This document shows, piece after piece, positions 12,852 through 63,425 of a stretch of 64,000 nucleotides of DNA (its first letter is position 1; every line of letters begins with the position of its first letter). A program made the position numbers and the translations under genes. Under the pieces are notes generated by a model. The model worked only from the letters and a program-made list of their open reading frames with translations. It was not told the origin of the DNA and ran no database searches. The DNA comes from Candidatus Levyibacteriota bacterium (lineage in GTDB: Bacteria > Patescibacteriota > Microgenomatia > Levybacterales > UBA12049): assembly GCA_016186645.1 (NCBI GenBank), contig JACPLF010000005.1, positions 33,257 through 97,256 on the forward strand, in the 5' to 3' direction.

Positions 12852-12973
12852 TCAAATTATTTTATCATAGAAGGGTATTGACATACTTTTGGATATATGT
12901 CTATACTAGTTTAGAGACCCGCCTTCGTCCGCCTCTGGCGGACTTCGGCGAGGCGAAGAAGGAGGTGATATAA

Positions 12974-29947: not shown

Positions 29948-31006
29948 ATGGAAGAAGAGTTGATGCAGATTAAAAATTCAGCGGTTTCAATGATAATTGA
30001 GGCCACGGATCAAAAAGAACTGGAAGAAATAAAACTTCAATTTTTGGGAAGATCAGGAAAATTAACTTCACTGTTTAAAGAAATTACGAAAGTTCCCATA
30101 GAAAGAAGGCGAGAAGTTGGTCAACTCGCCAATGACGTTAAAAATATAATTGAAGAAACCCTTCGGCTAGCTCAGGACAAGGTATCTGATCAAGAATCAC
30201 AATCCCGAAAAGAAAGTATAGACGTAACAGCGCCGGGAATAAAACCTCCAATCGGACACATACACCCTATGACACAAGTACTCTATGATGTGGTTGACAT
30301 ATTCAAAAAGATAGGATTCCAAGTCGCAGACGGACCCGAAATAGAAAGTGACTATTACAATTTTGAAGCACTTAATATCGCAAAAGATCATCCTGCCCGG
30401 GATACTCAACAAACTCTTTATTTAGATACAAGAAATAGTAAAATAAATCCTGGCGAAATAATTTTGAGGACTCAGACTTCTGCAATGCAAGGACGCGTAA
30501 TGGAAAAAGTAAAACCTCCGGTTCGTGTGATTGTTCCCGGAAAAAATTTTAGATATGAACAAGTCGATGCTTCTCATGGATTTGAATTTTGGCAGGTTGA
30601 AGGATTTATGGTTGACGAAAACGTAAGACTAACAGATTTATTCGGAACAATTGATTATGTTCTGAAGAAGTTGATGGGAGAAAGTACCAAATTAAAATTT
30701 GCAACAACTAACTTTCCTTTTGTTGAGCCGGGAGTTGATACATATATTGAGTGTACTGTTTGTAAGGGTAAAGCCCGCCTGCCGGACGGGCAGGGGTGCA
30801 GTTTCTGCAAACATAGCGGATGGAGCGAAATCATGCCGGCTGGAATGATTCATCCAAATGTCTTAAAAGCTGTTGGGTATGATAGTCAAAAAGTTTCAGG
30901 ATTTGCTTTCGCAATAGGCCTTTCCCGTCTCGTAACACTTCGCTATCAAATGGACGATTTGCGTTTGCTTACAAACCCGGATTTAAGAATCCTAAATCAA
31001 TTTTAA
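29948..31006 (+). CDS. pheS: Phenylalanyl-tRNA synthetase alpha subunit
   Basis: Class II motifs. FPFVEPG and GFAFAIGLSRL. Located upstream of pheT. Confidence 0.9.
   Translation: MEEELMQIKNSAVSMIIEATDQKELEEIKLQFLGRSGKLTSLFKEITKVPIERRREVGQLANDVKNIIEETLRLAQDKVSDQESQSRKESIDVTAPGIKPPIGHIHPMTQVLYDVVDIFKKIGFQVADGPEIESDYYNFEALNIAKDHPARDTQQTLYLDTRNSKINPGEIILRTQTSAMQGRVMEKVKPPVRVIVPGKNFRYEQVDASHGFEFWQVEGFMVDENVRLTDLFGTIDYVLKKLMGESTKLKFATTNFPFVEPGVDTYIECTVCKGKARLPDGQGCSFCKHSGWSEIMPAGMIHPNVLKAVGYDSQKVSGFAFAIGLSRLVTLRYQMDDLRLLTNPDLRILNQF
30778..30794. repeat. Palindrome CCTGCC-GGACG-GGCAGG in frame within pheS (read as LPDGQG)
   Basis: 6-bp arms with a 5-nt spacer. Same family. Confidence 0.65.
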
Positions 31007-31093
31007 ATTGAAAAAGGTAAATTGTAAAAACACATTGTAAATTTCAAATTTAATATGAATATTTACTATTTAATATTTACTATTTAATATTTT

Positions 31094-33019
31094 ATGCTGG
31101 CACCTTTGTCTTGGTTAAAAGAATATGTAGACATAAAATTAACTCCCAAAGAATTGGGAGAAAAACTTACCGAAGTTGGACTTGGCGTTGAAAAAATTAC
31201 CAAAACTTCAGATGACACTATTTTTGAATTGGAAATAACTCCAAACCGCCCTGACTTACTTTCAATTATTGGAATTACTCGCGAAATTGCAGCAATTGAA
31301 AACCAGCCTGCCGGCAAGGCAGGTAAAAATATTAAATATCCCAAATTCAAAACCCAACTCAAACCAACTGCAAAAGTACTTCCACTAACTATCAAAACTG
31401 ATTCAAAAATTAACCCAAGATTTACAGGAATTATTATTTCGGGAGTAAAAGTAGGGGAATCCCCAAAATGGCTAAAAGACCGCTTAGAAAAAATGGGGCA
31501 GAGACCCATCAATAATATTGTTGATATTACCAATTATGTAATGCTGGAATTGGGCAATCCTATTCATGCTTTTGATTACGACAAAATTGCTGAACATATA
31601 ATGATAGTTTCTCAAACAAAAGGCGGGGAAAAATTTGAAAGCGTAGACGGAGTAACTTATCACCTTCCCAAAGATACGGTCGTAATATCTGACAAAGAAA
31701 AAATTATAGATCTTTGCGGGATAAAAGGGGGAAGAAATACAGGAACTTATGAGGATACAAAAACTATTTTTATCCGTGTTCCTGTTGAAATCTCAAATTT
31801 AATAAGAAGAACATCTCTATCTCTTGGATTGAGAAGTGAGGCATCAAGTATTTTTGAGAGAGGAGTTAATGCCGGCGGTACAATTGATGCTTTGAAAAGA
31901 ACAGTTGATTTGGTTTTGGAATTGGCAGGCGGAGAAGTCGCAAGCGAACTTTATGATATAAAAAAAGAATATTTTAAACCTTGGAAATTAGAACTAAGAG
32001 TAAAAAGATTAAACCAAATTTTAGGCATTGAAATTCCAACAAAAAAAATTCTGGAGATTTTAGGATCACTCAATCTTTCACCCATACACCTTCCAGGTGA
32101 ACGGAAACGACACCTGGAAGGTGAAACGGTTATTGAATGTGCCATTCCAACCTACAGAAATGATTTAAAAATCGAAGAAGATTTGATTGAAGAAATTGCC
32201 CGAATTTATGGTTATAATAATTTTCCCAAAACAATGCCGGGAGGTACAATCCCAACAAAACAAATTCCATATTTCAAAGATTACAGACTTGATGAGAAAG
32301 TAAAAAATATTTTAAAAGCAAGCGGTTTTTCAGAAATTTATACCTACAGCTTGATAAGCGAAAAAGATTTAATAGAGGCGGGCATTAATTCTCAAAATGT
32401 TCTCCGCGTTGATAATCCGGTAAGTCGTGACTTCGAATATCTGCGTCCAACACTTAAAACTAATTTATTGAAAGCTCTGTCTCAAAATAAGTCTAACTTT
32501 GAAAAAATTAATCTTTTTGAATTAGGAAAAGTTTACAACGGAAAAAATTTAGATGAGGCAGAAGAAAATTATTTTCTCTCTGGGATTTCAAACTCTAAAT
32601 CATATTTTGAAGTTAAAGGAATGCTTGAAAAAATCTTTGAAGACTTAGGAATCAAAGAAGATCCAACAAGATATATTGAGATCTTGAACGAAAGAATTTT
32701 CTTTGAATTAAATTATTCAGAGCTTATTAAGAAAATAAATCCTGATAAAAAATTTATTCCTCTACCAAAATATCCGCCTATCGTAGAAGATTTATCAATA
32801 ATTTCAGACGCAAAAACTAGTGAGATTATTGATGAAATAAAAAAACAAAGTTCTATTATTGTTAATGTTTCACTTTTGGATCAGTTTGAAGATTCAAGAA
32901 CTTTTCATATTGTCTACCAAGATGAAAATAAAAACTTAACAGGAGAAGAAGTTGCTAAAATCCGCGAAAAACTCCTCAAGAGTCTTAAAGAAAAGTTCAC
33001 CGCCAGACTAAGGGAATAG
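31094..33019 (+). CDS. pheT: Phenylalanyl-tRNA synthetase beta subunit (short form)
   Basis: B3/B4 and B5 domain region. C-terminal FDV-like domain. Synteny with pheS. Confidence 0.85.
   Translation: MLAPLSWLKEYVDIKLTPKELGEKLTEVGLGVEKITKTSDDTIFELEITPNRPDLLSIIGITREIAAIENQPAGKAGKNIKYPKFKTQLKPTAKVLPLTIKTDSKINPRFTGIIISGVKVGESPKWLKDRLEKMGQRPINNIVDITNYVMLELGNPIHAFDYDKIAEHIMIVSQTKGGEKFESVDGVTYHLPKDTVVISDKEKIIDLCGIKGGRNTGTYEDTKTIFIRVPVEISNLIRRTSLSLGLRSEASSIFERGVNAGGTIDALKRTVDLVLELAGGEVASELYDIKKEYFKPWKLELRVKRLNQILGIEIPTKKILEILGSLNLSPIHLPGERKRHLEGETVIECAIPTYRNDLKIEEDLIEEIARIYGYNNFPKTMPGGTIPTKQIPYFKDYRLDEKVKNILKASGFSEIYTYSLISEKDLIEAGINSQNVLRVDNPVSRDFEYLRPTLKTNLLKALSQNKSNFEKINLFELGKVYNGKNLDEAEENYFLSGISNSKSYFEVKGMLEKIFEDLGIKEDPTRYIEILNERIFFELNYSELIKKINPDKKFIPLPKYPPIVEDLSIISDAKTSEIIDEIKKQSSIIVNVSLLDQFEDSRTFHIVYQDENKNLTGEEVAKIREKLLKSLKEKFTARLRE
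31307..31323. repeat. Palindrome CCTGCC-GGCAA-GGCAGG in frame within pheT (read as PAGKAG)
   Basis: Same family. Confidence 0.7.
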
Positions 33020-33651: not shown

Positions 33652-34439
33652 CCCCCCGATTACACCCCGCCCTCCGATTACACCCCGAGGGTGTTTGCCG
33701 TTGACACCTGAGGAAATTTGTGATTTACTGACCATATGCCTTCAAGAATAATTCCTTTTGTAAACGGTGAATATTACCACATTTTTAATAGAGGCGTAGC
33801 CAAAATGCAGATATTTAATAATTTCTATGATTACAATCGTTTCGTAAAAACGATGATTTATTATTCAATTGAAGGACCCAAGCCAAGATTTTCAGTTTTC
33901 ACCCCAACCATATCAATATTGAACATAAATAAGAAAATCGTCGATATTATTTGTTATTGCCTCATGCCTAATCATTTCCATTTCCTCTTGCGTCAGGTCA
34001 AAAAAGGCGGCATTACAGAATTCGTAAGCAGACTCAGTAATAGTTATACAAAATATATCAACATTAAAAATAAAAGAGTTGGTCCTTTATTGCAAGGGAA
34101 TTTTAAGGCTGTTCACGTAGAGACAAACGAACAGCTCCTGCATCTTTCACGATATATTCATCTAAACCCTCTTGTAAGCTATGTCGTAAAAGATTTAGAT
34201 ATCTATAAATGGTCATCCTATCTTGAATATATCGATCTAATTAATAATGGGATCTGCGATAAAAAAATAATACTGGATCAATTTAAGTCTCCTAAAGAAT
34301 ATAGGCAATTCGTTTTAGATCAAGAGAGTTATGGAAAAAAACTAGAAGCGATAAAGCATCAGCTTTTGGATTTGGAGGCGTAATTCCTATGTGCAATCGT
34401 AAGACACCCCGAGGGTGTAAACGGAAGGTGTAAACGGAA
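33652..34439 (+). mobile_element. REP-associated tyrosine transposase (RAYT/IS200-like) unit with flanking hairpin and tandem terminal repeats
   Basis: Identical 15-mer hairpin ACACCCCGAGGGTGT at 33680-33694 and 34404-34418. Tandem CCGATTACACCCC x2 on the left. Tandem GGTGTAAACGGAA x2 on the right, an imperfect inverse of the left repeats. Confidence 0.55.
33736..34383 (+). CDS. REP-associated tyrosine transposase (Y1 HUH transposase, IS200-like)
   Basis: HUH motif MPNHFHFLL. RYIHLNPL...YKWSSY resembles the RayT YIHxNPV...YPWSS catalytic Tyr region. Confidence 0.7.
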   Translation: MPSRIIPFVNGEYYHIFNRGVAKMQIFNNFYDYNRFVKTMIYYSIEGPKPRFSVFTPTISILNINKKIVDIICYCLMPNHFHFLLRQVKKGGITEFVSRLSNSYTKYINIKNKRVGPLLQGNFKAVHVETNEQLLHLSRYIHLNPLVSYVVKDLDIYKWSSYLEYIDLINNGICDKKIILDQFKSPKEYRQFVLDQESYGKKLEAIKHQLLDLEA

Positions 34440-38294: not shown

Positions 38295-40334
38295 ATGAAC
38301 CTTCAGATGCCAGTTGAGAAAGCCGGAAGGATATATAAAATGTATGCACGGCGCCTTGAAAAATTGGGCATAAAAACTTTTGAAGATTTCTTGTATCACA
38401 TCCCAAGCCGCTATGATGATTTTTCTTTAATCTCAAAAATCAACAGAGTCCAGCCCGGCGAAGTGGTTACTATTCAGGGTACTGTTTCTGAAATAAATAA
38501 TGAATTTACAAAAAATTTCAAAAAACTGCAAAGAGCAGAGATTGCAGATGACACCGGCACTATCGAAGTTGTGTGGTTTAATCAGCCTTATCTAACAAAA
38601 GTTATTAACAAAAACGACAAAATTTCTCTATCTGGAACTGTAGATTGGTTTTCAAGAAAATTAGTCATGCAGTCTCCGGAATATGAGATATTAAACGACT
38701 CACCAACAATTCACACCGGAAGATTAGTGCCTGTATATCCTGAAACTCGGGGAATAACATCCAAATGGCTTAGAAGACAGGTATATAAATTGATTAAAGA
38801 AAACCTTCAAACATTTGTCGAATATCTTCCCGATCAAATTATTAACGAGCATTCCCTGATAAAATTTGACGCCGCAATTAAACATATTCACTTCCCGCAA
38901 AATAAAGAATTGGCTGAAAAGTCAAAAAAAAGACTGTCATTTGATGAACTTTTCCTTTTACAGCTCTCTAGCCTGGAGAGAAAATTAAACTGGAATAAAA
39001 CTTTGGTGAGCAATCCATTTTCTGTAGATAAATTTAAAAATGAAACTGAAAATTTTTTAAACAGATTACCATTCAAATTAACAAGCGCTCAAAAAAGAGT
39101 AGTTGAAGAAATATTTAAAGATTTATCGAAATCCAAACCTATGAATAGGCTATTGGAAGGAGATGTCGGATCGGGAAAAACAGTTGTATCAGCAATAGGG
39201 ATGTATTTGGCTTTTTTAAACGGCTTTCAATCTGTTCTTATGGCTCCTACAGAAATTCTGGCTCAGCAGCATTACAAAACAATCTCAAAATTACTAGAAC
39301 CTTTTGGAATTAAAATTGGATTTGCAACCGGAAGTACAAAAACTAAATTAAAAAAATTTGATGTCATGGTCGGAACTCATGCTGTTTTAGAAAAGGGAAT
39401 TAACTTTGAAAAATTAGGACTTGTTGTCATTGACGAACAGCAAAGATTTGGGGTCGAGCAAAGAGCGATAATACGAAGCCGAGGTAAAAACCCTCACCTC
39501 CTTACTATGACAGCAACACCAATCCCCCGAACAATTGCATTAACTTTGTATGGAGATTTGGATCTTTCGATTCTGGATGAAATGCCTATTGGAAGAAAAC
39601 AAATCAAAACCTGGCTTGTGCCCCCGGAAAAACGTCTTAATGCTTATGCATGGATTGAAAAAGAAATTAAAACAACAAAAAGCCAGGTATTTATAGTTTG
39701 CCCTTTTATTGAAGAATCGGAAACTATGCAGACTGTGAAAGCGGCAAACAAAGAATTTGAATATTTGCAAAAAAATGTCTTCAAAAACCCGCCTGCCGGC
39801 GAGGCAAGCCTAAAACTTGGACTTTTGCACGGAAAAATGAAAGCAAAAGAAAAAGAAGAGGTTTTGACTAAGTTTAGGGATGGAAAAATTGATATTTTGG
39901 TTGCAACTCCTGTTGTTGAGGTTGGAATTGACATTCCAAATGCAGCAATTATTGTGATTGAAGCAGCAGAGCGTTTTGGTCTTGCGCAATTACATCAACT
40001 TCGAGGAAGAGTAGGAAGAGGAGATAAACAATCTTATTGCCTATTATTTACAGAGTCAAAGAATCCGCAGACTCTTGAACGATTAAAAGCCATGGAAAAG
40101 CATAATTTTGGCGCAGAATTAGCAGAACTGGATTTAAAGCTTAGAGGACCTGGGGAAATTTATGGAACCATGCAGCATGGCCGAAAATTCCTCAAAATCG
40201 CAAGTTTTTACGATCTGGATTTGATAAAGAGAGTTAGATTGGCTGCTGAAAAAATATTTCCAGACCTAAATAGATATCCTAAGCTTTCAGAAAAATTAAA
40301 AACCATAAATCTCAAAAAAGTCTCTCCCGATTAG
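38295..40334 (+). CDS. recG: ATP-dependent DNA helicase RecG
   Basis: Wedge domain. Helicase motifs GDVGSGKT, DEQQRFG and TATPIPRT. Confidence 0.9.
   Translation: MNLQMPVEKAGRIYKMYARRLEKLGIKTFEDFLYHIPSRYDDFSLISKINRVQPGEVVTIQGTVSEINNEFTKNFKKLQRAEIADDTGTIEVVWFNQPYLTKVINKNDKISLSGTVDWFSRKLVMQSPEYEILNDSPTIHTGRLVPVYPETRGITSKWLRRQVYKLIKENLQTFVEYLPDQIINEHSLIKFDAAIKHIHFPQNKELAEKSKKRLSFDELFLLQLSSLERKLNWNKTLVSNPFSVDKFKNETENFLNRLPFKLTSAQKRVVEEIFKDLSKSKPMNRLLEGDVGSGKTVVSAIGMYLAFLNGFQSVLMAPTEILAQQHYKTISKLLEPFGIKIGFATGSTKTKLKKFDVMVGTHAVLEKGINFEKLGLVVIDEQQRFGVEQRAIIRSRGKNPHLLTMTATPIPRTIALTLYGDLDLSILDEMPIGRKQIKTWLVPPEKRLNAYAWIEKEIKTTKSQVFIVCPFIEESETMQTVKAANKEFEYLQKNVFKNPPAGEASLKLGLLHGKMKAKEKEEVLTKFRDGKIDILVATPVVEVGIDIPNAAIIVIEAAERFGLAQLHQLRGRVGRGDKQSYCLLFTESKNPQTLERLKAMEKHNFGAELAELDLKLRGPGEIYGTMQHGRKFLKIASFYDLDLIKRVRLAAEKIFPDLNRYPKLSEKLKTINLKKVSPD
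39792..39808. repeat. Palindrome CCTGCC-GGCGA-GGCAAG (one mismatch) in frame within recG (read as PAGEAS)
   Basis: Same family. Confidence 0.6.
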
Positions 40335-49796: not shown

Positions 49797-50566
49797 ATAT
49801 CTCGATCCTGACTCTTTTCCCCGAAATGTTCCAAGGTCCTTTTGACTATTCCATTATAAAAAACGCGAAAGTGCAAAAGAAAGTTGATATTGAATTTATA
49901 AATATTCGGGATTTCGGTATCGGAAAACATAAAGTTGTTGACGATAAACCTTATGGAGGAGGAATTGGTATGATATTAAGAGTTGATGTCCTGGAGAAAG
50001 CAATTTCTGAAACAAAAGACCTGCCCGCCATCAGCTCGCGCCGAAGGCAAGCGCAGGCGGGCAAAAGACCCGCTTCGCCCGCCCAGACCCGGCGAGGCTG
50101 GCCGCGAGGCGAGCTAACGACTAAAGACCAAAGGGTAATTCTTCTAAGTCCCCATGGGAAAACTTTTAATCAGAAAAAAGCCTTGGAGCTTTCCCGCCTC
50201 AAACATCTTATTCTTGTATGCGGACGTTATGAGGGAATTGATGAAAGAGCAAAAGAATTTATAGACGAAGAACTGTCCATTGGAGACTTCGTGGTTACTG
50301 GCGGAGAAATTCCGGCAATGCTGGTCGTAGATGCTGTGGTAAGACTTATTGATGGCGTCCTAAAGAAAGGCGTGACAACTTCGGAGTCTTTTTCGCCAAT
50401 TCTAGAATACCCACAATACACCAAGCCCAATGCTTTCAAAAACTTAGACGTTCCTCCTATTCTCCTCAGCGGAGATCATAAGAAAATAAAAGATTGGAGA
50501 GATAATGAAGCGCTCATTATAACTAATAAACTTCGCCCTGATCTACTTAGCCGGAAAAAATCTTAA
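49793..50566 (+). CDS. trmD: tRNA (guanine37-N1)-methyltransferase TrmD carrying an in-frame GC-rich insertion of about 32 aa
   Basis: FPEMF, DKPYGGG, LVCGRYEGIDER and GGEIPAM motifs. Inserted segment PAISSRRRQAQAGKRPASPAQTRRGWPRGELT is encoded by 50019-50114. Confidence 0.85.
   Translation: MNISILTLFPEMFQGPFDYSIIKNAKVQKKVDIEFINIRDFGIGKHKVVDDKPYGGGIGMILRVDVLEKAISETKDLPAISSRRRQAQAGKRPASPAQTRRGWPRGELTTKDQRVILLSPHGKTFNQKKALELSRLKHLILVCGRYEGIDERAKEFIDEELSIGDFVVTGGEIPAMLVVDAVVRLIDGVLKKGVTTSESFSPILEYPQYTKPNAFKNLDVPPILLSGDHKKIKDWRDNEALIITNKLRPDLLSRKKS
50019..50114. repeat. GC-rich (about 70% GC) palindromic element inserted in frame in trmD
   Basis: Starts ACCTGCCCGCC and contains the inverted repeat TGCCCGCC/GGCGGGCA. 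Related copies at 22838-22912, 23672-23770 and 53704-53777. Confidence 0.6.
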
Positions 50567-52854: not shown

Positions 52855-53799
52855 CTAATTGGCCACAAAAAGGCCATACGATAGATAAGGCAGATAAGTC
52901 TGTGAATATCCCTCAAATGCAACTATCTTAATGGTTGACGATCCGGATGTTCCGGTTGAAGTGATCATATATCCCTGAGAAGGCAAAGATGTGCAATTGT
53001 TTCCCGCATGATTACAAGCATATACTCCGACCACAGCGTCTTTATAAATCGGAATCACTCTCATAAAAACAATGTCATTAACTCCTTTTGCAAGATCGCT
53101 GTTTGCTCCTGTTTCCGGTGTCCTATTTCCAAAAGTGAAGTTTGAAATTCCTGTGACGGTAAAACTTCCTGAATCAGCTTGAGTAAAATTGTTTACTGAG
53201 ATTCGTGCGGGACAGCTATCATAGGCATAACGATAAGATTTTATTTCTCCTGTATTTTTATTTCTTAGAATTACTATTGCCTGAATCGCAGCAGGAGCTG
53301 TTGACGTACCGCATGCCTCCTGGGGAGTACCCCAATATAAATGCAGAAAATTGGGAGACAGAGCAGAAGAATAATCCGGGGTACCATCTGCATTATGATT
53401 GACAAACCAAACATCGGCTCCCTCGTCTTTTGGGACAGCATTGCCTCCGTTTATTAAAAAACTGGAGCTTTGAATCTGCGTGAATTGAGTGGCATAACTA
53501 GAGTTATTGCTTGGATTATTTCCCTGTACTGCTATAGGAACAGAACCCTGTATTGCTCGCTCTATTCCTGCTTCTGCGGCAGCCAAAGCTTTTTGAGATT
53601 CTGCTTCTTCGGTTGAAGTCCTAAGGCTCGTAATGCTTCTTGAGGCAAGAGTAAGACCTATAGTTGATGCTATTATAATAACCAGAATAACTATCAAAAG
53701 AATCTGCCCGCCTTGACTCTCGCATCGCGCTCGCCTCGATTCGGCGAAGCGGGGCGAAGCGGGCGGCGAGGCAGGGCTCTTTTCTTTCCGCTCAGACAT
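52855..53799 (-). CDS. Pilin-like secreted protein (divergent N-terminal hydrophobic helix); N-terminus encoded by a GC-rich repeat
   Basis: GQILLIVILVIIIASTIGLTLA helix after a charged leader. No canonical GFTLIE motif. Confidence 0.35.
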   Translation of the reverse strand: MSERKEKSPASPPASPRFAESRRARCESQGGQILLIVILVIIIASTIGLTLASRSITSLRTSTEEAESQKALAAAEAGIERAIQGSVPIAVQGNNPSNNSSYATQFTQIQSSSFLINGGNAVPKDEGADVWFVNHNADGTPDYSSALSPNFLHLYWGTPQEACGTSTAPAAIQAIVILRNKNTGEIKSYRYAYDSCPARISVNNFTQADSGSFTVTGISNFTFGNRTPETGANSDLAKGVNDIVFMRVIPIYKDAVVGVYACNHAGNNCTSLPSQGYMITSTGTSGSSTIKIVAFEGYSQTYLPYLSYGLFVAN

Positions 53800-53908: not shown

Positions 53909-55342
53909 TTATGGGGCTACGTTCTGCCAGGCTCTTGGGATATATCCGGACAAAGAAGGATAATGAAGCATGAAATCAGGTCTTTCAATAAAGCTGACAG
54001 AAGGGTAGGAAGAGTTGTTTGCGCAAAGGGTTCTGTTGTTTATGAAAGTTCCGGTTGGCCCGCCGATTCCTCTTCCCGCATTTGCAACAACTGTACCTGC
54101 AATGTTAAGCCTTAGATCAACAGTCGGACAGGAATTTGCGCCATCAGCTATGAAATTAACATCTGCGGAATAAAGTCCTTGTATTGTTGGGTTTGCTGAA
54201 GAAGCCTGCTCTCCAATACTTCTATCAACAGTTATGTTTCCTTTAGCTGAAAATATAACAGTAGAAGTATTGGGAACTGAAATTTTTTCATTGATATTTA
54301 AATTTCCATTTATTAAAATTACATAGTTTTGGTTTGGGGGAAAGGCATATCCGCTGCCATTAAGATTAAGATCGCTGTTTATCCAATAAACTCCATGTTC
54401 AACATTTGCGTTCCAAGCGCAATTAAAAGCATCTCCATTACTGCAAAGACTCTCTGCTCCTTTTTTGGCAATTGCAGATGCATTCACGGTATCTAGTAAG
54501 AATCTGTAGGAAGTGTAAATCAGATTATGGGTATCTGTAAAAACATCAGGATATGAAAAACTCCCAACTTGCCAGTTAAATGGATTGGGGCTTGCTTGTC
54601 CATTCCCAAAGAAAGGAGCAGTTTTCCCTGAGAATATTACACCTGGCATTCCGCCAGTGCCGGGAATTGAAGCGTATTTCCCTGAAGGCAGAATATTTGT
54701 AAATCCTGCGTCCCATCTCATGTCAGAACCTGCGGACTGGAACCAGGCAGAAGCAAGATTTGTCACTCCGCTATTTAGATTAATAATGTTCCCGCTGGAA
54801 CAGCTTGCCTCACTTGTTATGGGGACAGAACACCCTGCTCCGACATTAACAATAAGGGAGTTTCCTGGAGTTGTCGGATATGTGAAGCTATATCCTGCAG
54901 GCAGTCCTGAATAAGTAATTGCATACTGGCCCGAAGGAAGACTGTTAAAAGAATAATTTCCTGTCCCAACAGGACTTGAATAAGAGCCTGAAGCAGGAAG
55001 CCTGGTTATTGCAATAGCGCCTGTGTAATTGGAGTCTCCAATGCTTTTTGTATCGCTATTGACATCATTGAAAATCTTTCCTGATATGGAATAAGTGGGG
55101 ATAGGGGTTGGAGTGGGAGTTGAGGTTGGAGCCGGGGTGGGAATGGCGCAGGAACAGGAACCTGTGATAATGCAATTAGTATTCTGCATAGAGTTACTGC
55201 CGTTTGGCTGGCAGCTGAGATCTACGCTTGCTGCGCAAAAGGTAGAGGTGTTTGAGAGGGAAAAAACACTACAGGAAGGACCATTATAGAAATTCAGAGT
55301 GCATGAATAACTGTTGCATCCTGCCGCAGGGGGGAAGGACAA
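53909..55342 (-). CDS. Secreted Cys-rich protein with PT linker and SdrD-B/Cna-B-like domain (adhesin-like)
   Basis: PTPAPTSTPTPTPIPT linker. SGKIFNDVNSD motif. Confidence 0.4.
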   Translation of the reverse strand: MSFPPAAGCNSYSCTLNFYNGPSCSVFSLSNTSTFCAASVDLSCQPNGSNSMQNTNCIITGSCSCAIPTPAPTSTPTPTPIPTYSISGKIFNDVNSDTKSIGDSNYTGAIAITRLPASGSYSSPVGTGNYSFNSLPSGQYAITYSGLPAGYSFTYPTTPGNSLIVNVGAGCSVPITSEASCSSGNIINLNSGVTNLASAWFQSAGSDMRWDAGFTNILPSGKYASIPGTGGMPGVIFSGKTAPFFGNGQASPNPFNWQVGSFSYPDVFTDTHNLIYTSYRFLLDTVNASAIAKKGAESLCSNGDAFNCAWNANVEHGVYWINSDLNLNGSGYAFPPNQNYVILINGNLNINEKISVPNTSTVIFSAKGNITVDRSIGEQASSANPTIQGLYSADVNFIADGANSCPTVDLRLNIAGTVVANAGRGIGGPTGTFINNRTLCANNSSYPSVSFIERPDFMLHYPSLSGYIPRAWQNVAP

Positions 55343-56007
55343 TAAATAGAATAGTTAACAGTTGCATCCGAAATCATAAGACGATTGGCAGGATTAGCGC
55401 TGGTAACTGTGCAGCCGGCAGGAGGAGATGTAGTAAGTGTTACATTAACTGAGTGCTGATCCGGCCAGATGCGGGGAGTCTGGTAAACCCCAAATGAATC
55501 TGTAATGTAGGGACCTAAAAGATTGTCTGCAGTTACATCCTTTACTAGAATGTGGGCTCCGCTACCATAGTCATCATCGCCTGCATTCCTATCAAATACA
55601 CCATTATTGTCATTATCGTAATATACAGTGCCCTTTATCAGCCAGAGGGTTGGGGTGGGGGTGGGGGTTGGTGTATTAGTCGGGGTTGGAGTGGGGGTGG
55701 GGAGATTATTGCAACAGCGAAATTCATAAAGGGGAGTAATGCCGCGTGGTCGATTTTCACAATAGTCGTATCCTAATCCTCCTTGAGCAATTGGAGTAGT
55801 GCAACATTGAGTGCCTGTAAATCCACCAGATCCAGTACAGTCTTGCTGAAAGAGATTGCTACTGCAAGAAGGCAGACTAGATTGTGTCGCCCACCAAGAA
55901 GTACAAGTCTGAGCAAATATTTTTTGAGGAATTATTAGAACAAAGATAACTACAGAAAGGAAAATTACAAGCGACTTAACTATAGACGAGAATAAATTCT
56001 TTTGCAC
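55294..56007 (-). CDS. Secreted protein with PT linker and SdrD-B-like calcium-binding domain
   Basis: Signal peptide. PTPTPTNTPTPTPTPT linker. GTVYYDNDNNGVFDRNAGDDD motif. Confidence 0.45.
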   Translation of the reverse strand: MQKNLFSSIVKSLVIFLSVVIFVLIIPQKIFAQTCTSWWATQSSLPSCSSNLFQQDCTGSGGFTGTQCCTTPIAQGGLGYDYCENRPRGITPLYEFRCCNNLPTPTPTPTNTPTPTPTPTLWLIKGTVYYDNDNNGVFDRNAGDDDYGSGAHILVKDVTADNLLGPYITDSFGVYQTPRIWPDQHSVNVTLTTSPPAGCTVTSANPANRLMISDATVNYSIYCPSPLRQDATVIHAL

Positions 56008-58323: not shown

Positions 58324-59274
58324 GTGAAAAAGCTTATATTAATCGACGGCAACGCTATCTTGCACAGGGCGTATCATGCCCTGCCTCCTTTGACTAACAA
58401 AAATGGAATTGTGGTTAACGCTGTTTATGGGTTTTTCTCAATGTTTCTTAAGATTCTGGAGGATCAAAAGCCTGATTTTATAATAGTCTGTTTTGACAAA
58501 AAAGCCCCGACTTTCCGCAAAGAATTATTTGTCGGTTATCAGGCAAAACGTCCTAAGATGTCAGATGAGCTAATTCCGCAAATCAAATTTGTCCATGATA
58601 TTTTGGAAAGGGCAAAAGTTGAAATTTTTGAAATTGACGGATATGAAGCAGATGACATGATAGGTACGATAGCCTATCAAACTCAAAACTCAAAACTCAA
58701 AACTCAAAACATAGAAACGTTGATTGTTTCAGGAGATCGGGATTTGCTGCAGCTTGTTAATCATCATGTCAAAATGATCGCGCCGATTACAGGTTTGACC
58801 AACATGATTGTTTATGATGAAGCTTTGGTTTTTCAAAAATATGGGATTAAACCTTCCCAAATGGTTGATTACAAAGCGCTGGTTGGAGATCCGTCAGATA
58901 ATTATCCTGGCGTAGCAGGAATTGGTCCCAAAACCGCGTCGACCCTTATTAATCAATACAAAAACCTGGAAAATATATATAAAAATTTGGAAAAAATCAA
59001 AGCCAAAAATCCAAATCTTGCTTTAAAACTTGCAGAAGGTGCGGAAGCTGCAGGACTTGCGCAAAAACTGGCGGGAGTTGTTTTGGACGCCCCGATAACT
59101 TTGGATATTGAAAAATCAAGCATAAAATTTTTTGATAAAGAAGGTCTGAAGAAGGAATTTGAGAAATTCGGCTTCAAAAGCTTGTTAAAGCGATTAAGCG
59201 ACCCGCGACCCGCCTTCGCCAAGGCTTCTGCGGGCAAAGAAAAACCAGAAGCAGAACAGATGGGACTATTATGA
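58324..59274 (+). CDS. 5'-3' exonuclease (Pol I N-terminal FEN-like nuclease domain only)
   Basis: LILIDGNAILHRAYHA and GYEADDMIGT motifs. HhH region GIGPKTA. Confidence 0.85.
   Translation: MKKLILIDGNAILHRAYHALPPLTNKNGIVVNAVYGFFSMFLKILEDQKPDFIIVCFDKKAPTFRKELFVGYQAKRPKMSDELIPQIKFVHDILERAKVEIFEIDGYEADDMIGTIAYQTQNSKLKTQNIETLIVSGDRDLLQLVNHHVKMIAPITGLTNMIVYDEALVFQKYGIKPSQMVDYKALVGDPSDNYPGVAGIGPKTASTLINQYKNLENIYKNLEKIKAKNPNLALKLAEGAEAAGLAQKLAGVVLDAPITLDIEKSSIKFFDKEGLKKEFEKFGFKSLLKRLSDPRPAFAKASAGKEKPEAEQMGLL
58679..58712. repeat. Tandem heptanucleotide repeat (AAACTCA) x4.5 inside the 5'-exonuclease CDS
   Basis: TCAAACTCAAAACTCAAAACTCAAAACTCAAAAC encodes QTQNSKLKTQN in a loop between conserved nuclease blocks. 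Confidence 0.7.
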
Positions 59275-60398
59275 ATATAGCCTTAGCGCATGATTACATC
59301 AAGGAGTATGGTGGTGCCGAGCGTGTTTTGGAAGCGCTGCATGAGATTTGGCCGGACGCGCCAGTTTTTACATCTGTTTATTTACCGGAATTTTTGGGTC
59401 CGCATAAAGAGAGATTTAAAAATTGGAATATCAGAACATCATGGTTACAGTTTTTGCCTTTTAAAAATAAGCTAATAAGCCCGATTCGGCTTATAGCACC
59501 TTTTGTGTTCAAAAGTTTTGATTTTTCTAAATTCGATGTGGTAATTGTTTCCGCCACTGGCGCATATGTTAAGCAATTTAAAATTAAAAATTTAAAATTA
59601 AAAATTGTGGAATATTGCCACACGCCGCCAAGGTATCTTTATGGTTATGCAACTGCAAGAGAATGGAAAAATAATTTAATTTTTAGAGTTTTTGGAGAAA
59701 TTGCGAATCATTTTTTGCGCCTTGTGGATTTTAAGTCTAGCCAAAATGTAGATTTTTTCATCGCAAATTCCCACAATGTAGCGGGAAGAATTAAAAAGTT
59801 TTACAGGAAAGATTCAAGTGTGATTTACCCACCCGCCATGCAAGACAGCTTGCTGGCGTTACGGGCAGGTCCGCCATCTACTCCTTACTTCCTCGCAGGA
59901 GGAAGAATTGCGAGGCCAAAACACATTGATTTGATAATTAAAACTTTTGGAAAATTAGATTTACCACTTAAGGTTTTTGGAAGAGGGTTTGCAGGGGCAG
60001 ATTTAAGTTCCAAAAATTCCAACATAGAATTTCTCGGGGAAGTGAGCGATGAAGAGAAAATAAAGTTAATGAGAAATGCGAAGGCTTTTGTTTTTGCCGC
60101 CGAAGATGAAGATTTTGGAATAACTCCGGTTGAGGCAATGTCAGTTGGCACGCCAGTTATCGCCTTTGCGTCAGGAGGAATTTTGGAAACGATAATTGAC
60201 GGGCAGACGGGAGTTCTTTATTACTTTAATGATTTAAACCTGCCTGCCGGCAAGGCAGGTCATTTAAGTGAAGCAATCCGTAAGTTTGAGAAAATGAAAT
60301 TTGACAGAGAGTTAATAATAAAACACGCGCAAAAATTTTCAAAAGAAAGATTCAGAAATGAGATTTTTGAATTCGTAAACTCAAAGTTTAAAAAGTAA
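59271..60398 (+). CDS. Glycosyltransferase family 4 (GT-B, group 1)
   Basis: C-terminal EDFGITPVEAMSVGTPVIA EX7E-like motif. Confidence 0.8.
   Translation: MNIALAHDYIKEYGGAERVLEALHEIWPDAPVFTSVYLPEFLGPHKERFKNWNIRTSWLQFLPFKNKLISPIRLIAPFVFKSFDFSKFDVVIVSATGAYVKQFKIKNLKLKIVEYCHTPPRYLYGYATAREWKNNLIFRVFGEIANHFLRLVDFKSSQNVDFFIANSHNVAGRIKKFYRKDSSVIYPPAMQDSLLALRAGPPSTPYFLAGGRIARPKHIDLIIKTFGKLDLPLKVFGRGFAGADLSSKNSNIEFLGEVSDEEKIKLMRNAKAFVFAAEDEDFGITPVEAMSVGTPVIAFASGGILETIIDGQTGVLYYFNDLNLPAGKAGHLSEAIRKFEKMKFDRELIIKHAQKFSKERFRNEIFEFVNSKFKK
60239..60259. repeat. Palindrome CCTGCCTGCCGGCAAGGCAGG in frame within the glycosyltransferase (read as LPAGKAG)
   Basis: Same family. Confidence 0.7.
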
Positions 60399-60682: not shown

Positions 60683-61390
60683 ATGGGAAGTGGCTATAAA
60701 GATAAGGTTATTATCTCGGTAGGCGGATCCCTGGTTGTTCCCAACGGAGGGATCGACACTACTTTCCTTTCAAAATTTAATAGCTTTATCAGAAAGCAGC
60801 TGGCGAAAAATCCAAATCGCCAGTTTTTTTTGGTTATAGGAGGCGGAACAACAGCGCGCCACTATAGAGACGCAGGCCGCACAGTTTTGGGCCACGAACT
60901 TACTCATGATGATTTGGACTGGATTGGGATTCATGCAACAAAATTAAATGCCCACTTGGTTAGGACTGTTTTTAGAGACATTGCCCATCCATATATACTC
61001 AAACATTATGAAATTATAAGGAAAGTCACAGAGCCGGTTGTTGTTGCGGCTGGATGGAAGCCGGGATGGTCTACGGATTATGACGCAGTTTTGCTTTGTG
61101 AGGATTATGGGGCAAAAACAGTTATTAATTTGAGTAATATTGACAAAGTTTACAATAAAGATCCAAGAAAATTTAAAGACGCAAAATCTTATGACAAAAT
61201 TTCATGGCCTGATTTTAGAAAAATAGTTGGAGACAAATGGATTCCCGGAATAAATGCGCCTTTTGATCCTGTTGCAGCCAAAAAAGCTCAGGATTTAGGG
61301 GTCAAAGTTATTGTTATGGATGGAGCTCATTTGAAAAATCTGGAAAACTTCCTTAACGGAAAAAAATTTGTCGGCACAGTCATAGGATAA
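60683..61390 (+). CDS. Amino-acid-kinase family protein, likely archaeal-type UMP kinase
   Basis: VIISVGGSLV...FLVIGGG...AAGWKPGWSTD pattern of the aspartokinase/UMPK fold. Confidence 0.55.
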   Translation: MGSGYKDKVIISVGGSLVVPNGGIDTTFLSKFNSFIRKQLAKNPNRQFFLVIGGGTTARHYRDAGRTVLGHELTHDDLDWIGIHATKLNAHLVRTVFRDIAHPYILKHYEIIRKVTEPVVVAAGWKPGWSTDYDAVLLCEDYGAKTVINLSNIDKVYNKDPRKFKDAKSYDKISWPDFRKIVGDKWIPGINAPFDPVAAKKAQDLGVKVIVMDGAHLKNLENFLNGKKFVGTVIG

Positions 61391-61508
61391 TCTCAGAACT
61401 CAAATCGCAAAACTCAAAACCACAACTAAAATCTAAAATCTTTAGATGACGAAGTTTTGAGATTTACAGATGTAGATTTGACATTTGAGATCTAAGATTT
61501 GAGATTTC

Positions 61509-62594: not shown

Positions 62595-63425
62595 ATGGAG
62601 AAATTTGACCCTGAAATTTTTAAAAAACTTTATATTCCGCCGCCCAATTCGCACAAAGGGCAAAATGGAAAGTTAATGATTATTGGAGGGTCCCAGCTTT
62701 TTCACGCAGCCTCTCTCTGGTCTTTGAAAGTCGCGTCTCGAATTGTTGATATGGTTTTTTATTCCTCGGTTCCGCAAAATAGTCAGATTGTTGCAAAAGC
62801 CAAGCAAGAGTTTAGAGACGGAATTGTGGTGCCAAGAAATAAGATTGGGGATTATATTGTAGAATCCGATTGTATTTTGATCGGTCCCGGTCTGCCGCGA
62901 AAAAATGGAGAAGAGGTCGGAGATGACGACACTAAGGATTTGACGGAAAATTTATTGAAAAAGTATCCGGACAAAAAATGGGTGGTAGATGGAGGTAGTC
63001 TTCAGACCAGTGCCCCATCTTTTATTCCCTCCAACAGCATACTTACGCCCCATGTAAAAGAGTTTGAAAAGATCTTTGATTTAAGATTTAAGATTAAAGA
63101 TTTAAGAATGATTAGGGAAATGGCGAAGAAGTATAATTGCACGATTTTATTAAAAGGGCCGGTGGATGTTGTTTGCTCGCCGCATAAATGCGTAAGGATT
63201 TCGGGGGGAAATGCGGGGATGACCAAAGGCGGGACAGGAGATGTTTTGGCAGGATTAGTTGCTGGGCTTTACTGTAAAAATGACGACCCATTTTTGGTCG
63301 CAAGTGCAGCAAGTTTTATCAATAAGAAAGCAGGAGAAAGTTTATTTGCAAAAGTCGGCTACTACTTCAACGCTTCGGACCTAGCGGATGAGATTCCTAG
63401 GGTGATGAAGGATTTAGTAGTTTAA
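62595..63425 (+). CDS. nnrD: ADP-dependent NAD(P)H-hydrate dehydratase (YjeF C-terminal domain)
   Basis: HKGQNGKLMIIGGS and GGTGDVLAG motifs. Confidence 0.8.
   Translation: MEKFDPEIFKKLYIPPPNSHKGQNGKLMIIGGSQLFHAASLWSLKVASRIVDMVFYSSVPQNSQIVAKAKQEFRDGIVVPRNKIGDYIVESDCILIGPGLPRKNGEEVGDDDTKDLTENLLKKYPDKKWVVDGGSLQTSAPSFIPSNSILTPHVKEFEKIFDLRFKIKDLRMIREMAKKYNCTILLKGPVDVVCSPHKCVRISGGNAGMTKGGTGDVLAGLVAGLYCKNDDPFLVASAASFINKKAGESLFAKVGYYFNASDLADEIPRVMKDLVV

Follow-up and report, generated by a model that had tools for sequence, protein, structure and literature searches.

Does a perfect heptanucleotide repeat in the middle of a nuclease gene act as an on/off switch, or is it a tolerated expansion of a protein loop? 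The question is raised by an array found in the window, a stretch of 64,000 nucleotides from a Candidatus Levyibacteriota bacterium (contig JACPLF010000005.1); the features considered here are collected in Table 1. TRF detected on the forward strand, at 58679-58710, a repeat of period 7 (unit AAACTCA, 4.6 copies, 100% matches, score 64) in the context TATC(AAACTCA)4AAAC followed by ATA. TRF and the sequence agree that the repeat, which a first-pass annotation had recognized, is real and of the slippage type; its start had been placed correctly, and the end then given, 58712, lies 2 nt beyond the repeat. The units are read in all three frames and encode QTQNSKLKTQN, and both translation and alignment located this peptide, as had been proposed, between conserved nuclease blocks (EADDMIGTIA and SGDRDLLQL). 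The array has no inverted partner.

Table 1. Coordinates of the exonuclease gene, its loop and the heptamer arrays in the window.
Feature	Coordinates	Strand	Detail	Basis
Stand-alone 5'-3' exonuclease / flap endonuclease gene	58324..59274	+	316 aa, MBI2613418.1	PF02739 + PF01367
Hypervariable loop-coding segment	58675..58728	+	YQTQNSKLKTQNIETLIV, 54 nt, between EADDMIGTIA and SGDRDLLQL	alignments, AF2 model
Perfect heptanucleotide array (AAACTCA)x4.6	58679..58710	+	identical copy in L116, L117, L110 and L120	TRF, sequence
AATT(T/A)AA x4.6 in GT4 glycosyltransferase gene	59575..59606	+	KQFKIKNLKLKI, second hotspot loop	TRF
Inverted pair of degenerate heptamer arrays	61389..61507	.	left arm 61389-61441, right arm 61452-61507	TRF, inverted repeat
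(GATTTAA)x4.3 in NAD(P)H-hydrate dehydratase gene (NnrD)	63078..63107	+	peptide DLRFKIKDLR	TRF; Pfam PF01256
Intergenic heptamer/14-mer array ATTTAAT x6.6	31048..31092	.		TRF

The host gene encodes a housekeeping replication/repair nuclease. Its product matched PF02739 (resolvase-like N domain, E 9.7e-55) and PF01367 (H3TH, E 2.5e-29), both above the curated cut-offs; the best PDB matches were the Pol I N-terminal domains 6VDE and 1TAQ (E ~3e-47), and the acidic residues D110, D111, D138 and D140 (motifs EADD... and GDxD) are invariant. These are the traits of the 5'-3' exonuclease / flap endonuclease (Pol I N-terminal domain) family. The coding sequence had been described as a Pol I 5'-exonuclease; the nuclease domain was confirmed, and the protein is a stand-alone, FEN-like enzyme with no polymerase domain, recorded under Candidatus Levybacteria. 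A full-length PolA was considered and rejected: the open reading frame comprises 316 aa, and its end runs into the beginning of the glycosyltransferase gene. None of the ten largest ORFs of the window, which were scanned, contains a polymerase domain. Exonuclease orthologs are 299-368 aa long. The exonuclease, glycosyltransferase and NnrD proteins of the window are each singletons in a 15-billion-protein collection; therefore, there are no alleles from the same species to compare.

The array occupies a loop whose length ranges from 11 to 72 aa among relatives (120 homologs, 40 loci). In the AF2 model of the exonuclease a helix (109-122) is followed by a short helix (126-129) and a strand (130-135), and the pLDDT is 68 in the block 121-130 vs 86 and 89 in the flanking blocks. 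As modeled, the array site is a helix-to-strand surface loop tolerant of insertions. The loop of the window is 5 aa longer than those of the Taq and M. smegmatis Pol I (HMMER alignments to PDB) and exactly 7 aa longer than those of array-less orthologs. Close relatives (P0012, P0014, P0028, L118 and L113) have no insert, and other relatives carry unrelated sequences at the same position. Lineages with other seeds bear arrays of their own unit in this loop, all of them in frame: (AAATTCA)x4.6 in L010, (AAGTTCA)x5 in L007, degenerate AAGTTNG units in L005, AAAGGGC units in L032 and AAAAGTG units in L042. The loop repeatedly holds such arrays of other heptamers, palindromic array pairs and GC-rich mini-inserts nested in arrays, and the longer Levybacteria inserts found there (L002, L016, L017 and L020) are palindromic.

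Among the exonuclease orthologs, four alleles (L118, L113, L022 and L012) have 1.6 copies of the unit, those of the window and of L116, L117, L110 and L120 have 4.6, and that of L119 has 5.0 through a point change. The 1.6- and 4.6-copy states differ by exactly 21 nt, that is, three units or 7 aa, which bears out the earlier proposal that the frame survives only when units change in multiples of three. The same step is seen in two independent seed families. The first, with the seed TATC AAACTCA AAAC, has loops of 33 or 54 nt, and the second has NQSQKE (39 nt) in L128 vs NQSQKSKIKSQKE (60 nt) in L125 and L129. The NJ tree of 119 homologs built with the loop masked was star-like, and the number of array gains and losses is not countable from it.

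The perfect array is identical in five diverged lineages, the core of which shares 80-88% identity at the amino acid level and 74-82% at the DNA level. While 41.6% of the core nucleotide sites of the six array-bearing genes are variable, the array has no variable site. In these genes no 32-nt segment of the core has fewer than 6 variable sites (the median being 13), and the array is the sole invariant 32-nt stretch of the exonuclease gene; the flanking synonymous sites differ. Two near-identical contig pairs only, L110/L119 and L122/L123, served as an instability test. The contigs of the first pair overlap for 2,569 nt with one difference, located at the first base 3' of the array, where a change to the repeat-consistent base (AAACTTA to AAACTCA) lengthens the repeat. 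The differences in the second pair were rejected as repeat instability and attributed to scaffold gaps and contig-end noise. Taken together, an array that does not vary and a base change that lengthens it argue for slippage or templated correction in a 7-nt register.

The first-pass annotation had seen in this array the architecture of a contingency locus. Loci of this kind made of SSRs occur in Haemophilus, Neisseria and Campylobacter, with heptanucleotide cases in the H. influenzae hmw promoters (PMC8262952, PMC2651432). In such a scheme the gain or loss of a single unit would toggle the nuclease and generate subpopulations without FEN activity, a state that might be a transient mutator or repeat-instability state. 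The array resembles contingency loci in being a slippage-prone tandem repeat, in this case perfect, with a unit that is not a multiple of three inside a coding sequence, and it is evidently active in misalignment-type events. Loss of flap endonuclease leads to higher duplication rates in yeast rad27 and E. coli polA 5'-exonuclease mutants, so that a nuclease switch would have a phenotype. However, the assembled sequences contain no copy-number polymorphism that includes out-of-frame alleles. A tblastn search found no frameshifted allele in the assembled sequences of ~36 Levybacteria loci, and none that is out of frame was recovered in a frame-blind DNA scan of metagenomes with ATHGCNWAYCAAACTCAAAAC, in which two of the 48 matches were orthologous (L110 with 4.6 copies and L113 with 1.6 copies) and the remainder were due to chance. 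A related imperfect array in a nine-member cluster is the same in all 7 members that reach through the loop, and the exact protein of the cluster representative was present on 19 contigs. Protein P0130 (150 aa) was considered as an 'OFF' allele and rejected, as its contig turns to unrelated sequence exactly at the array; the contig is either a chimera or a rearrangement, not a frameshift.

The comparison with orthologs that the annotation had recommended thus showed the array and the 21-nt steps, all alternative states being in frame. Of the two observations that it had named as speaking against phase variation, uniform copy number was found across the five lineages, but the insert of the relatives is written in the same repetitive codons and not in non-repetitive ones. 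Also unlike contingency loci, the tract is short, lies mid-gene in a housekeeping gene of a class unlike the known phase-variable genes, and has the size seen in many unrelated Levybacteria genes. Nothing indicates that the array acts as an on/off switch, and we regard that function as very improbable.

Heptamer arrays are abundant in this lineage. In 415 kb of Levybacteria loci, all of which were picked around the exonuclease gene and do not provide a genome-wide measure, there are 51 period-7 arrays with a score of at least 40 and 28 with a score of at least 50; ten order-2 Markov simulations of the same 415 kb produced no array with a score of at least 40. Periods 7, 14 and 21 account for most of the strong repeats, and 47 perfect runs were counted at lag 7, vs 0-9 for each other period from 5 to 12. 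The period-7 excess over chance and over other periods that marks the bacterial heptanucleotide SSR class is therefore present in the sampled loci, but the mainly intergenic location is not: 46 of 62 arrays (74%) lie within open frames of at least 120 codons, a mild depletion vs the coding fraction of 85.5% (p = 0.018). The genes involved include those for the exonuclease, the GT4 transferase, NnrD, Fpg, TGT and a PduO-type adenosyltransferase. Beyond the Levybacteria set, only three related loci (L039, L041 and L042) had period-7 arrays. The 75 arrays are built from 47 different units, a diversity that favors local duplication over one dispersed element. A size of 4.6 units is usual across many unrelated genes of the lineage; the copy numbers of spacer arrays also bunch, near 4-5 and 7-8, and the size mode may therefore reflect the mechanism rather than selection for frame.

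Array density is uneven within the window, where four of the five arrays lie within 58.6-63.1 kb. The intergenic array is located between an ORF at 29948..31006 and a pheT-like gene that starts at 31094. Orthologs of the glycosyltransferase have different heptamer units at the same loop, and the NnrD ortholog of L009 has (AAACTCA)x7.4 at about the same residue. A strict rule of +21 nt everywhere was rejected, since neither the glycosyltransferase array nor that of NnrD is a clean 21-nt insertion: the loop of the former measures 45 nt vs 42 nt in the base state, and the latter makes no net insertion relative to PDB homologs.

The spacer between an AA_kinase-family gene and recF (118 nt, 61391-61508) had been described as a related inverted heptamer structure, and it proved to be one. 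Its inverted repeat I1 (61389-61427 / 61468-61506) has 39-nt arms that are 74% complementary. TRF reported repeats at 61392-61431, 61426-61441 and 61456-61507. The left arm has the units AATCTCA, GAACTCA, AATCGCA and AAACTCA, and the right arm has TTTGAGA-type units. The sequence AAACTCAAAACTCA occurs with at most 2 mismatches 10 times in the window vs 1.4 expected, and two of these occurrences are within the spacer. The hairpin has a z of -2.4 as DNA and -2.5 as RNA. DnaA boxes and a promoter had been suggested as features to look for in this repeat, and neither consensus was found: 61391-61508 has no TTATCCACA-like match (at most 1 mismatch), the window-wide count being at chance level, and the spacer has no sigma-70-like promoter consensus and no intrinsic terminator. 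Cumulative GC skew climbs across the window, and its trend neither shifts nor switches near 61.4 kb. On these grounds the spacer was rejected as a replication origin or promoter.

Short repeats can confuse assemblers, and in L124, a contig of 956 nt, divergence sets in exactly where a related array lies. Nonetheless, an assembly or sequencing artefact is effectively refuted because assemblies made independently by different projects and from different kinds of sample (NCBI MAGs, JGI, ENA and Logan) share the array; moreover, its 32 nt are well under read length. A different possibility is that the arrays are footprints or landing pads of mobile elements, GC-rich palindromic mini-elements that make a 7-bp target duplication and leave tandem heptamers after cycles of insertion and excision. 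Short GC-rich palindromes are indeed nested exactly within arrays in L121 (CCTGTCCCCAGAGGGGGA), in L122 (a 30-nt element) and in the glycosyltransferase loop of L013; in L017 an array is followed by CCTGCCTGCCGGCAGGCAGG and then by an inverted array, and inserts of this kind are present in the exonuclease loop of P0021, P0030, P0032, P0043, P0059 and P0120. The window has 14 matches to the GC-rich motif family vs 2.8 expected, one of which adjoins a (GCGACCC)x2.3 duplication at 59198-59213. Yet most arrays, including the one at 58679-58710, are free of a GC-rich element, the units vary widely and correspond to the local seed, and the analysis identified no transposase that makes a 7-bp duplication. 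A target duplication would be indistinguishable from a pre-existing repeat, and the single-base, repeat-extending change between L110 and L119 fits templated correction better, all of which makes a mobile element quite unlikely as the source. Nor do the arrays form a dispersed palindromic family of the RPE, REP or MITE type, with shared sequence and inverted-repeat structure; the palindromic recF spacer and some of the relatives' inserts are made from local units. Rickettsia palindromic elements, a dispersed family of ~100-150 nt with conserved sequence, were reportedly found inserted in frame in protein genes by Ogata et al. in 2000. The Levybacteria arrays are like them in that in-frame repeats are tolerated in surface loops of conserved proteins and in that the longer loop inserts are palindromic, but they are built from local 7-nt units and have no common sequence.

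The perfect conservation of the DNA could instead mean a function at the DNA or RNA level. The repeat would then be kept as a signal (a protein-binding heptad or a structure) or, at the protein level, as a selected peptide extension such as a flexible charged linker or an interaction site. The uniqueness of the array as an invariant stretch across five lineages would fit this explanation, as would the recurrent use of the same loops in several proteins and the capacity of inverted array pairs to form hairpins. On the other hand, the insert is absent from the close relatives named above, other relatives have unrelated 11-72 aa sequences at the same place, (AAACTCA)n is not self-complementary and the units vary from gene to gene. 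Hence, we consider it unlikely that selection for a function of its own keeps the repeat in place.

The array is probably a frame-preserving three-unit expansion of a loop, originated by slippage or templated correction and filtered by the reading frame. The resident 11-nt seed AAACTCAAAAC, which includes the codons for QTQN, would have gained three units (21 nt, 7 aa) at the distal end of the connection between helix and strand, in a loop that appears to tolerate almost any insertion. Misalignment in a 7-nt register, either replication slippage or templated correction between units, most likely made the array and keeps it perfect. This process would be unusually active in Levybacteria and would place similar arrays in permissive loops of housekeeping genes and in spacers. 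Selection would purge all lengths that shift the reading frame or bring in a stop codon, so that assembled genomes show only the 1.6- and 4.6-5.0-copy states. The first unit is part of a constrained helix end, and homogenization anchored there would keep the array identical across lineages. The encoded peptide, rich in K, N, Q and S, probably extends the loop in a neutral or near-neutral way and does not act as a switch. If units were added one at a time, the move from 1.6 to 4.6 copies would pass through two frameshifted states of a gene that is probably important, and a gain of three units in one step is left unexplained.

A broader proposal, which we offer as possible though doubtful, is that Levybacteria and their close CPR relatives have a lineage-specific process that generates and homogenizes repeats in a 7-nt register and nests GC-rich palindromic mini-elements in them. 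Such a process would repeatedly write A-rich heptamer arrays, single or as inverted pairs, into the same permissive enzyme loops; templated correction anchored on a constrained seed would keep them perfect, and the arrays would be preferred nesting sites for the mini-elements. If true, it would be an undescribed route by which ultra-small genomes grow low-complexity protein loops, and a natural system for dissecting the long-noted and unexplained preference of bacteria for heptamers. As a candidate phase-variable gene the locus is ordinary, and that label is probably wrong; annotators should not take such repeats in Levybacteria genes as evidence of phase variation. Its value resides in a CPR lineage in which, at the sampled loci, 7-nt arrays are abundant in conserved genes despite a frame-unfriendly unit length, and in comparative data that point to a selective filter (the 21-nt steps), concerted evolution of an invariant array whose loop is dispensable, and a templated base change that lengthens the repeat. 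It offers a testable handle on why heptamers are the favored long SSR in several bacterial phyla and on how reduced genomes gain lineage-specific loop insertions.

A literature search for heptamer repeats in CPR, Patescibacteria or Levybacteria returned nothing specific, and the closest parallels come from other organisms. Borg tandem repeats (PMC9879509) are likewise numerous, perfect and A-rich, arise locally within ORFs, add low-complexity segments to existing proteins, evolve rapidly and have slippage discussed as their origin. In Borg ORFs the unit length is always divisible by three and the repeats create disordered protein regions (PMC9879509); in Levybacteria a 7-nt unit is used, with the frame held by unit number or total length, and the host is the chromosome of a CPR bacterium and not an archaeal extrachromosomal element. 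Many bacteria have an excess of heptameric SSRs, and a tie between slippage and the footprint of the polymerase active site has been proposed (PMC4692102). For the cyanobacterial STRR / Nostoc GGGGA(C/T)T and Xanthomonas GGGAATC repeats, Rehm et al. (2015, PMC4692102), citing Mrazek et al. (2007), describe traits shared with the Levybacteria arrays: a 7-nt unit in excess over other periods, a mode of about four units, inverted pairs, variation in length and sequence between related genomes, and a proposed origin by polymerase slippage. The Nostoc and Xanthomonas repeats are rich in G, have been considered as G-quadruplex formers and show a strong bias toward non-coding DNA, unlike those of Levybacteria, which are A-rich, of 47 kinds, unable to form G4 and in frame in the housekeeping ORFs that hold 74% of them. 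The occurrence of a mode of roughly four units where there is no G-quadruplex potential suggests that this size mode comes from repeat dynamics and not from G4 selection.

The heptanucleotide repeat that the first-pass annotation had placed in the nuclease gene was confirmed in the sequence and by TRF. The array is not a chance occurrence, since ten same-composition simulations of 415 kb produced no period-7 array at a TRF score of at least 40. The gene encodes a stand-alone exonuclease, and the solved structures closest to it are those of the Pol I N-terminal nuclease domains from M. smegmatis and Taq (E about 3e-47). At its stop, the exonuclease gene overlaps with the beginning of the GT4 glycosyltransferase (GT) gene, and none of the ten largest window ORFs scanned contained a polymerase domain. 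The protein is MBI2613418.1, from a Candidatus Levybacteria MAG, encoded on a 185-kb contig, and a singleton in the protein collection. Almost all related loci found by tblastn (L numbers; homologous proteins carry P numbers) were from Levybacteria or Patescibacteria MAGs. Many records among L002-L036 are titled 'uncultured Gammaproteobacteria bacterium' (TPA MAG assemblies) and encode a Levybacteria-type exonuclease and glycosyltransferase (50-79% identity); they are probably mislabelled. Some relatives carry a small gene between the exonuclease and glycosyltransferase genes that is absent from the window (PF05635, 23S rRNA intervening-sequence protein).

Repeats and associated features (window positions unless a locus is named)
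Feature	Location	Strand	Details
Exonuclease ORF	58324..59274	+	316 aa; 5'-3' exonuclease N-terminal and H3TH domains (PF02739, PF01367)
Perfect heptanucleotide array	58679-58710		TATC(AAACTCA)4AAAC; TRF period 7, 4.6 copies, 100% matches
Array allele	window, L116, L117, L110, L120		4.6 copies, 54-nt loop; TATC(AAACTCA)4AAAC
Array-less allele	L022, L012, L118, L113		1.6 copies, 33-nt loop; TATC/AATC AAACTCA AAAC
5.0-copy allele	L119		4.6-copy array lengthened through a single substitution
Own-unit array, exonuclease loop	L010		(AAATTCA)x4.6
Own-unit array, exonuclease loop	L007		(AAGTTCA)x5
Own-unit array, exonuclease loop	L005		AAGTTNG, decayed
Own-unit array, exonuclease loop	L032		(AAAGGGC)
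Own-unit array, exonuclease loop	L042		(AAAAGTG)
In-frame arrays, other housekeeping genes	59575-59606, 63078-63107; L009:8883-8933; L013:8934-9168; L023:825-877		
recF spacer			118 nt, between amino-acid-kinase-family gene and recF; inverted pair of degenerate heptamer arrays
PF05635 gene	L122:2145-2372, L123:3092-3319, L129:2490-2807		
GC-rich elements	12916-12955, 30766-30802, 39786-39812, 50018-50119, 53732-53782, 59196-59240, 60238-60247		
Degenerate (GGGTGG)n / 18-nt repeat	55647-55702	-	in minus-strand ORF 55294..56007
Short tandem duplication	33652-33687		18-nt unit CCCCCCGATTACACCCCG x2 (94% matches)
Short tandem duplication	34414-34439		perfect 13-nt unit x2

The array product, QTQNSKLKTQN, is flanked by the invariant blocks EADDxIGT and SGDRDxLQL. 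An AlphaFold model (mean pLDDT 77.5) places these residues at the end of helix 109-122, in a short turn/helix and at the start of strand 130-135, with a local pLDDT of 68 compared to 86 and 89 in the adjoining blocks. Structure-database alignments show a 5-residue gap at this point in Taq and M. smegmatis Pol I. Loop length ranged from 11 to 72 residues in 40 loci and 120 homologs (67-88% identity) while the rest of the protein was highly conserved, which indicates a permissive surface loop. Judging from the known FEN fold, it would be located at a distance from the active site.

The 4.6- and 1.6-copy alleles differ by 21 nt, i.e., three units or 7 aa. The same step was found in a second family of seeds, the resident short sequences from which array units probably derive: NQSQKE (39 nt, L128) corresponds to NQSQKSKIKSQKE (60 nt, L125 and L129). 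Lineages with other seeds have arrays of their own units at this site. Other relatives contain palindromic inserts of ~90-170 nt whose arms have a periodicity of 7 (or 8) nt (L002, L016, L017, L020, L019, L027) or GC-rich mini-inserts nested within the heptamer array (L121, L122; also P0021, P0030, P0032, P0043, P0059, P0120). These in-frame alleles 21 nt apart support the slippage logic of the first-pass annotation and its rule that only multiples of three units preserve the frame.

The proposal that the array is a phase-variable contingency locus did not find support. The key test is frame polymorphism, which distinguishes contingency loci from the Levybacteria array, where none was seen in assembled sequences. 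Five independent array-bearing lineages have equal copy numbers at a core DNA identity of only 74-82% (49-63% at third codon positions), and a related imperfect array was unchanged in all seven loop-spanning members of a 9-member cluster, whose representative occurs as the exact protein on 19 contigs. No frame break across the loop was present in tblastn matches from about 36 Levybacteria loci. A pattern search of metagenome contigs at the DNA level, independent of frame and copy number, detected no out-of-frame allele in a small sample of two (one of 4.6 and one of 1.6 copies, both in frame and from the same metagenome). Rare out-of-frame variants may exist at the read level. A truncated protein considered as an OFF allele was rejected. 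Its contig, the 956-nt JGI contig L124 (1-956), is 100% identical to L125:1438-1901 over 464 nt of the exonuclease locus and unrelated from the exact end of the heptamer array onward, the break being either an assembly chimera through a shared repeat or a real rearrangement.

In the core of six array-bearing exonuclease genes 41.6% of the nucleotide positions were variable, and no 32-nt core window had fewer than 6 variable sites (median 13). The array, of the same length, had none, although the loop it encodes is dispensable. Import of the array by tract-limited recombination is argued against by the flanks, where directly adjacent synonymous sites differ among the six genes. Loci L110 and L119, from different projects, differ by a single base over 2,569 nt (L110:513, L119:1199). 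It lies immediately 3' of the array, and the change (AAACTTA to AAACTCA) matches the repeat; for a random single substitution, the chance of extending the repeat in this way is estimated at about 2/(3 x 2569), or roughly 3e-4. Both the invariance and this base are consistent with concerted evolution, in which units frequently misalign and undergo templated correction. Correction would be anchored on the first unit, which encodes the conserved helix end; Q119, at that end, is invariant. Taken as a whole, the array rather likely arose by expansion of heptamers from an anchoring seed in a permissive loop, with the reading frame acting as a filter.

Among the tandem repeats of the window and 38 Levybacteria loci (415 kb, all taken around the exonuclease gene), period 7 and its multiples predominated. 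After collapsing overlapping TRF rows of all periods, 51 period-7 arrays scored at least 40 and 28 at least 50, with period 8 a distant second; lag-7 perfect runs numbered 47 compared to 0-9 for each other period from 5 to 12. Beyond this set, period-7 arrays were found only in the related loci L039, L041 and L042; these have exonucleases with 45-47% identity to that of the window. Counting TRF period-7 rows alone, 46 of 62 arrays were within open frames (120 codons or longer); as 85.5% of the sequence is coding, this amounts to only a mild depletion (p = 0.018). Array-bearing genes include those for the exonuclease, the GT4 glycosyltransferase, NAD(P)H-hydrate dehydratase (NnrD), Fpg, tRNA-guanine transglycosylase and PduO-type adenosyltransferase. 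The adjoining glycosyltransferase gene often has two to three arrays, of which some form inverted pairs, with a recurrent array loop between TGAY and CHTPPRY. This loop and NnrD around residue 162 carry different units in different lineages; the latter has (GATTTAA)x4.3 in the window and (AAACTCA)x7.4 in L009. The sense strand of the units is A-rich. The units are also diverse, and their 47 kinds in 75 arrays argue for local duplication rather than one dispersed element. Copy numbers in ORFs were 3.7-5.1 (42 arrays) or 7.3-8.7 (4 arrays), with none between, suggestive of three-unit steps. The similar pattern of the few spacer arrays, and the GT and NnrD arrays, neither of which is a clean +21-nt insertion, caution against taking such steps as the explanation of this size mode. 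Array density is uneven: of the five strong period-7 arrays in the 64-kb window, four are located within 4.5 kb (58.6-63.1 kb), and those of related loci are concentrated downstream of the exonuclease gene.

The related repeats and large imperfect inverted repeat described upstream of recF are present, as inverted arrays with left units AATCTCA/GAACTCA/AATCGCA/AAACTCA... and right units of the TTTGAGA type. The long imperfect hairpin into which the spacer folds is modestly more stable than those of shuffled sequences (z about -2.4; 5/200 shuffles fold equally well). The suggested check found neither a DnaA box nor a sigma-70-type promoter in the spacer; it also lacked an intrinsic terminator, no skew switch was located nearby, and these searches gave no evidence of a specific function. 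The spacer is the counterpart of the inverted array pairs inside relatives' genes. The similarity between its units and the exonuclease unit can be traced to an A-rich unit type common among arrays, 20% of which are within one mismatch of AAACTCA compared to 4% of random genomic 7-mers.

One report (PMC4692102) describes heptameric SSRs as over-represented in many bacteria, with slippage tied to the polymerase active-site footprint as the proposed cause. Its Xanthomonas and Nostoc arrays occur as inverted pairs and prefer a size of four units, which was put down to G-quadruplex formation. The Levybacteria repeat works like these over-represented cyanobacterial and xanthomonad heptanucleotide SSRs; however, its arrays are A-rich, diverse and mostly coding, and they appear to share the four-unit mode without G4 potential. 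Borg tandem repeats also add low-complexity segments to proteins, with unit lengths divisible by three (PMC9879509). In Levybacteria, unlike Borgs, the frame is kept by the number of units. Rickettsia palindromic elements are found in frame in surface loops, as are the Levybacteria arrays, which differ by having no conserved element sequence. A search of the accessible literature library found no paper on heptamer arrays in CPR genes. We regard the Levybacteria array as a new coding-region variant of an already known heptamer repeat class.

Short GC-rich elements, palindromic in part, also form a family in the window (37.6% GC), which has 21 islands with a GC content of 75% or more and 14 matches to ACCCGCCTKC (2.8 expected). 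Several are within CDSs, e.g., at the exonuclease C-terminus (PAFAKASAGK) and in the glycosyltransferase (LPAGKAGH), and elements of this kind are nested in heptamer arrays of L121, L122, L013 and L017. The product of the (GGGTGG)n repeat is a Pro-Thr-rich linker, PTPTPTPTNTPTPTPTPT; the protein that contains it has a hydrophobic segment at its N-terminus.
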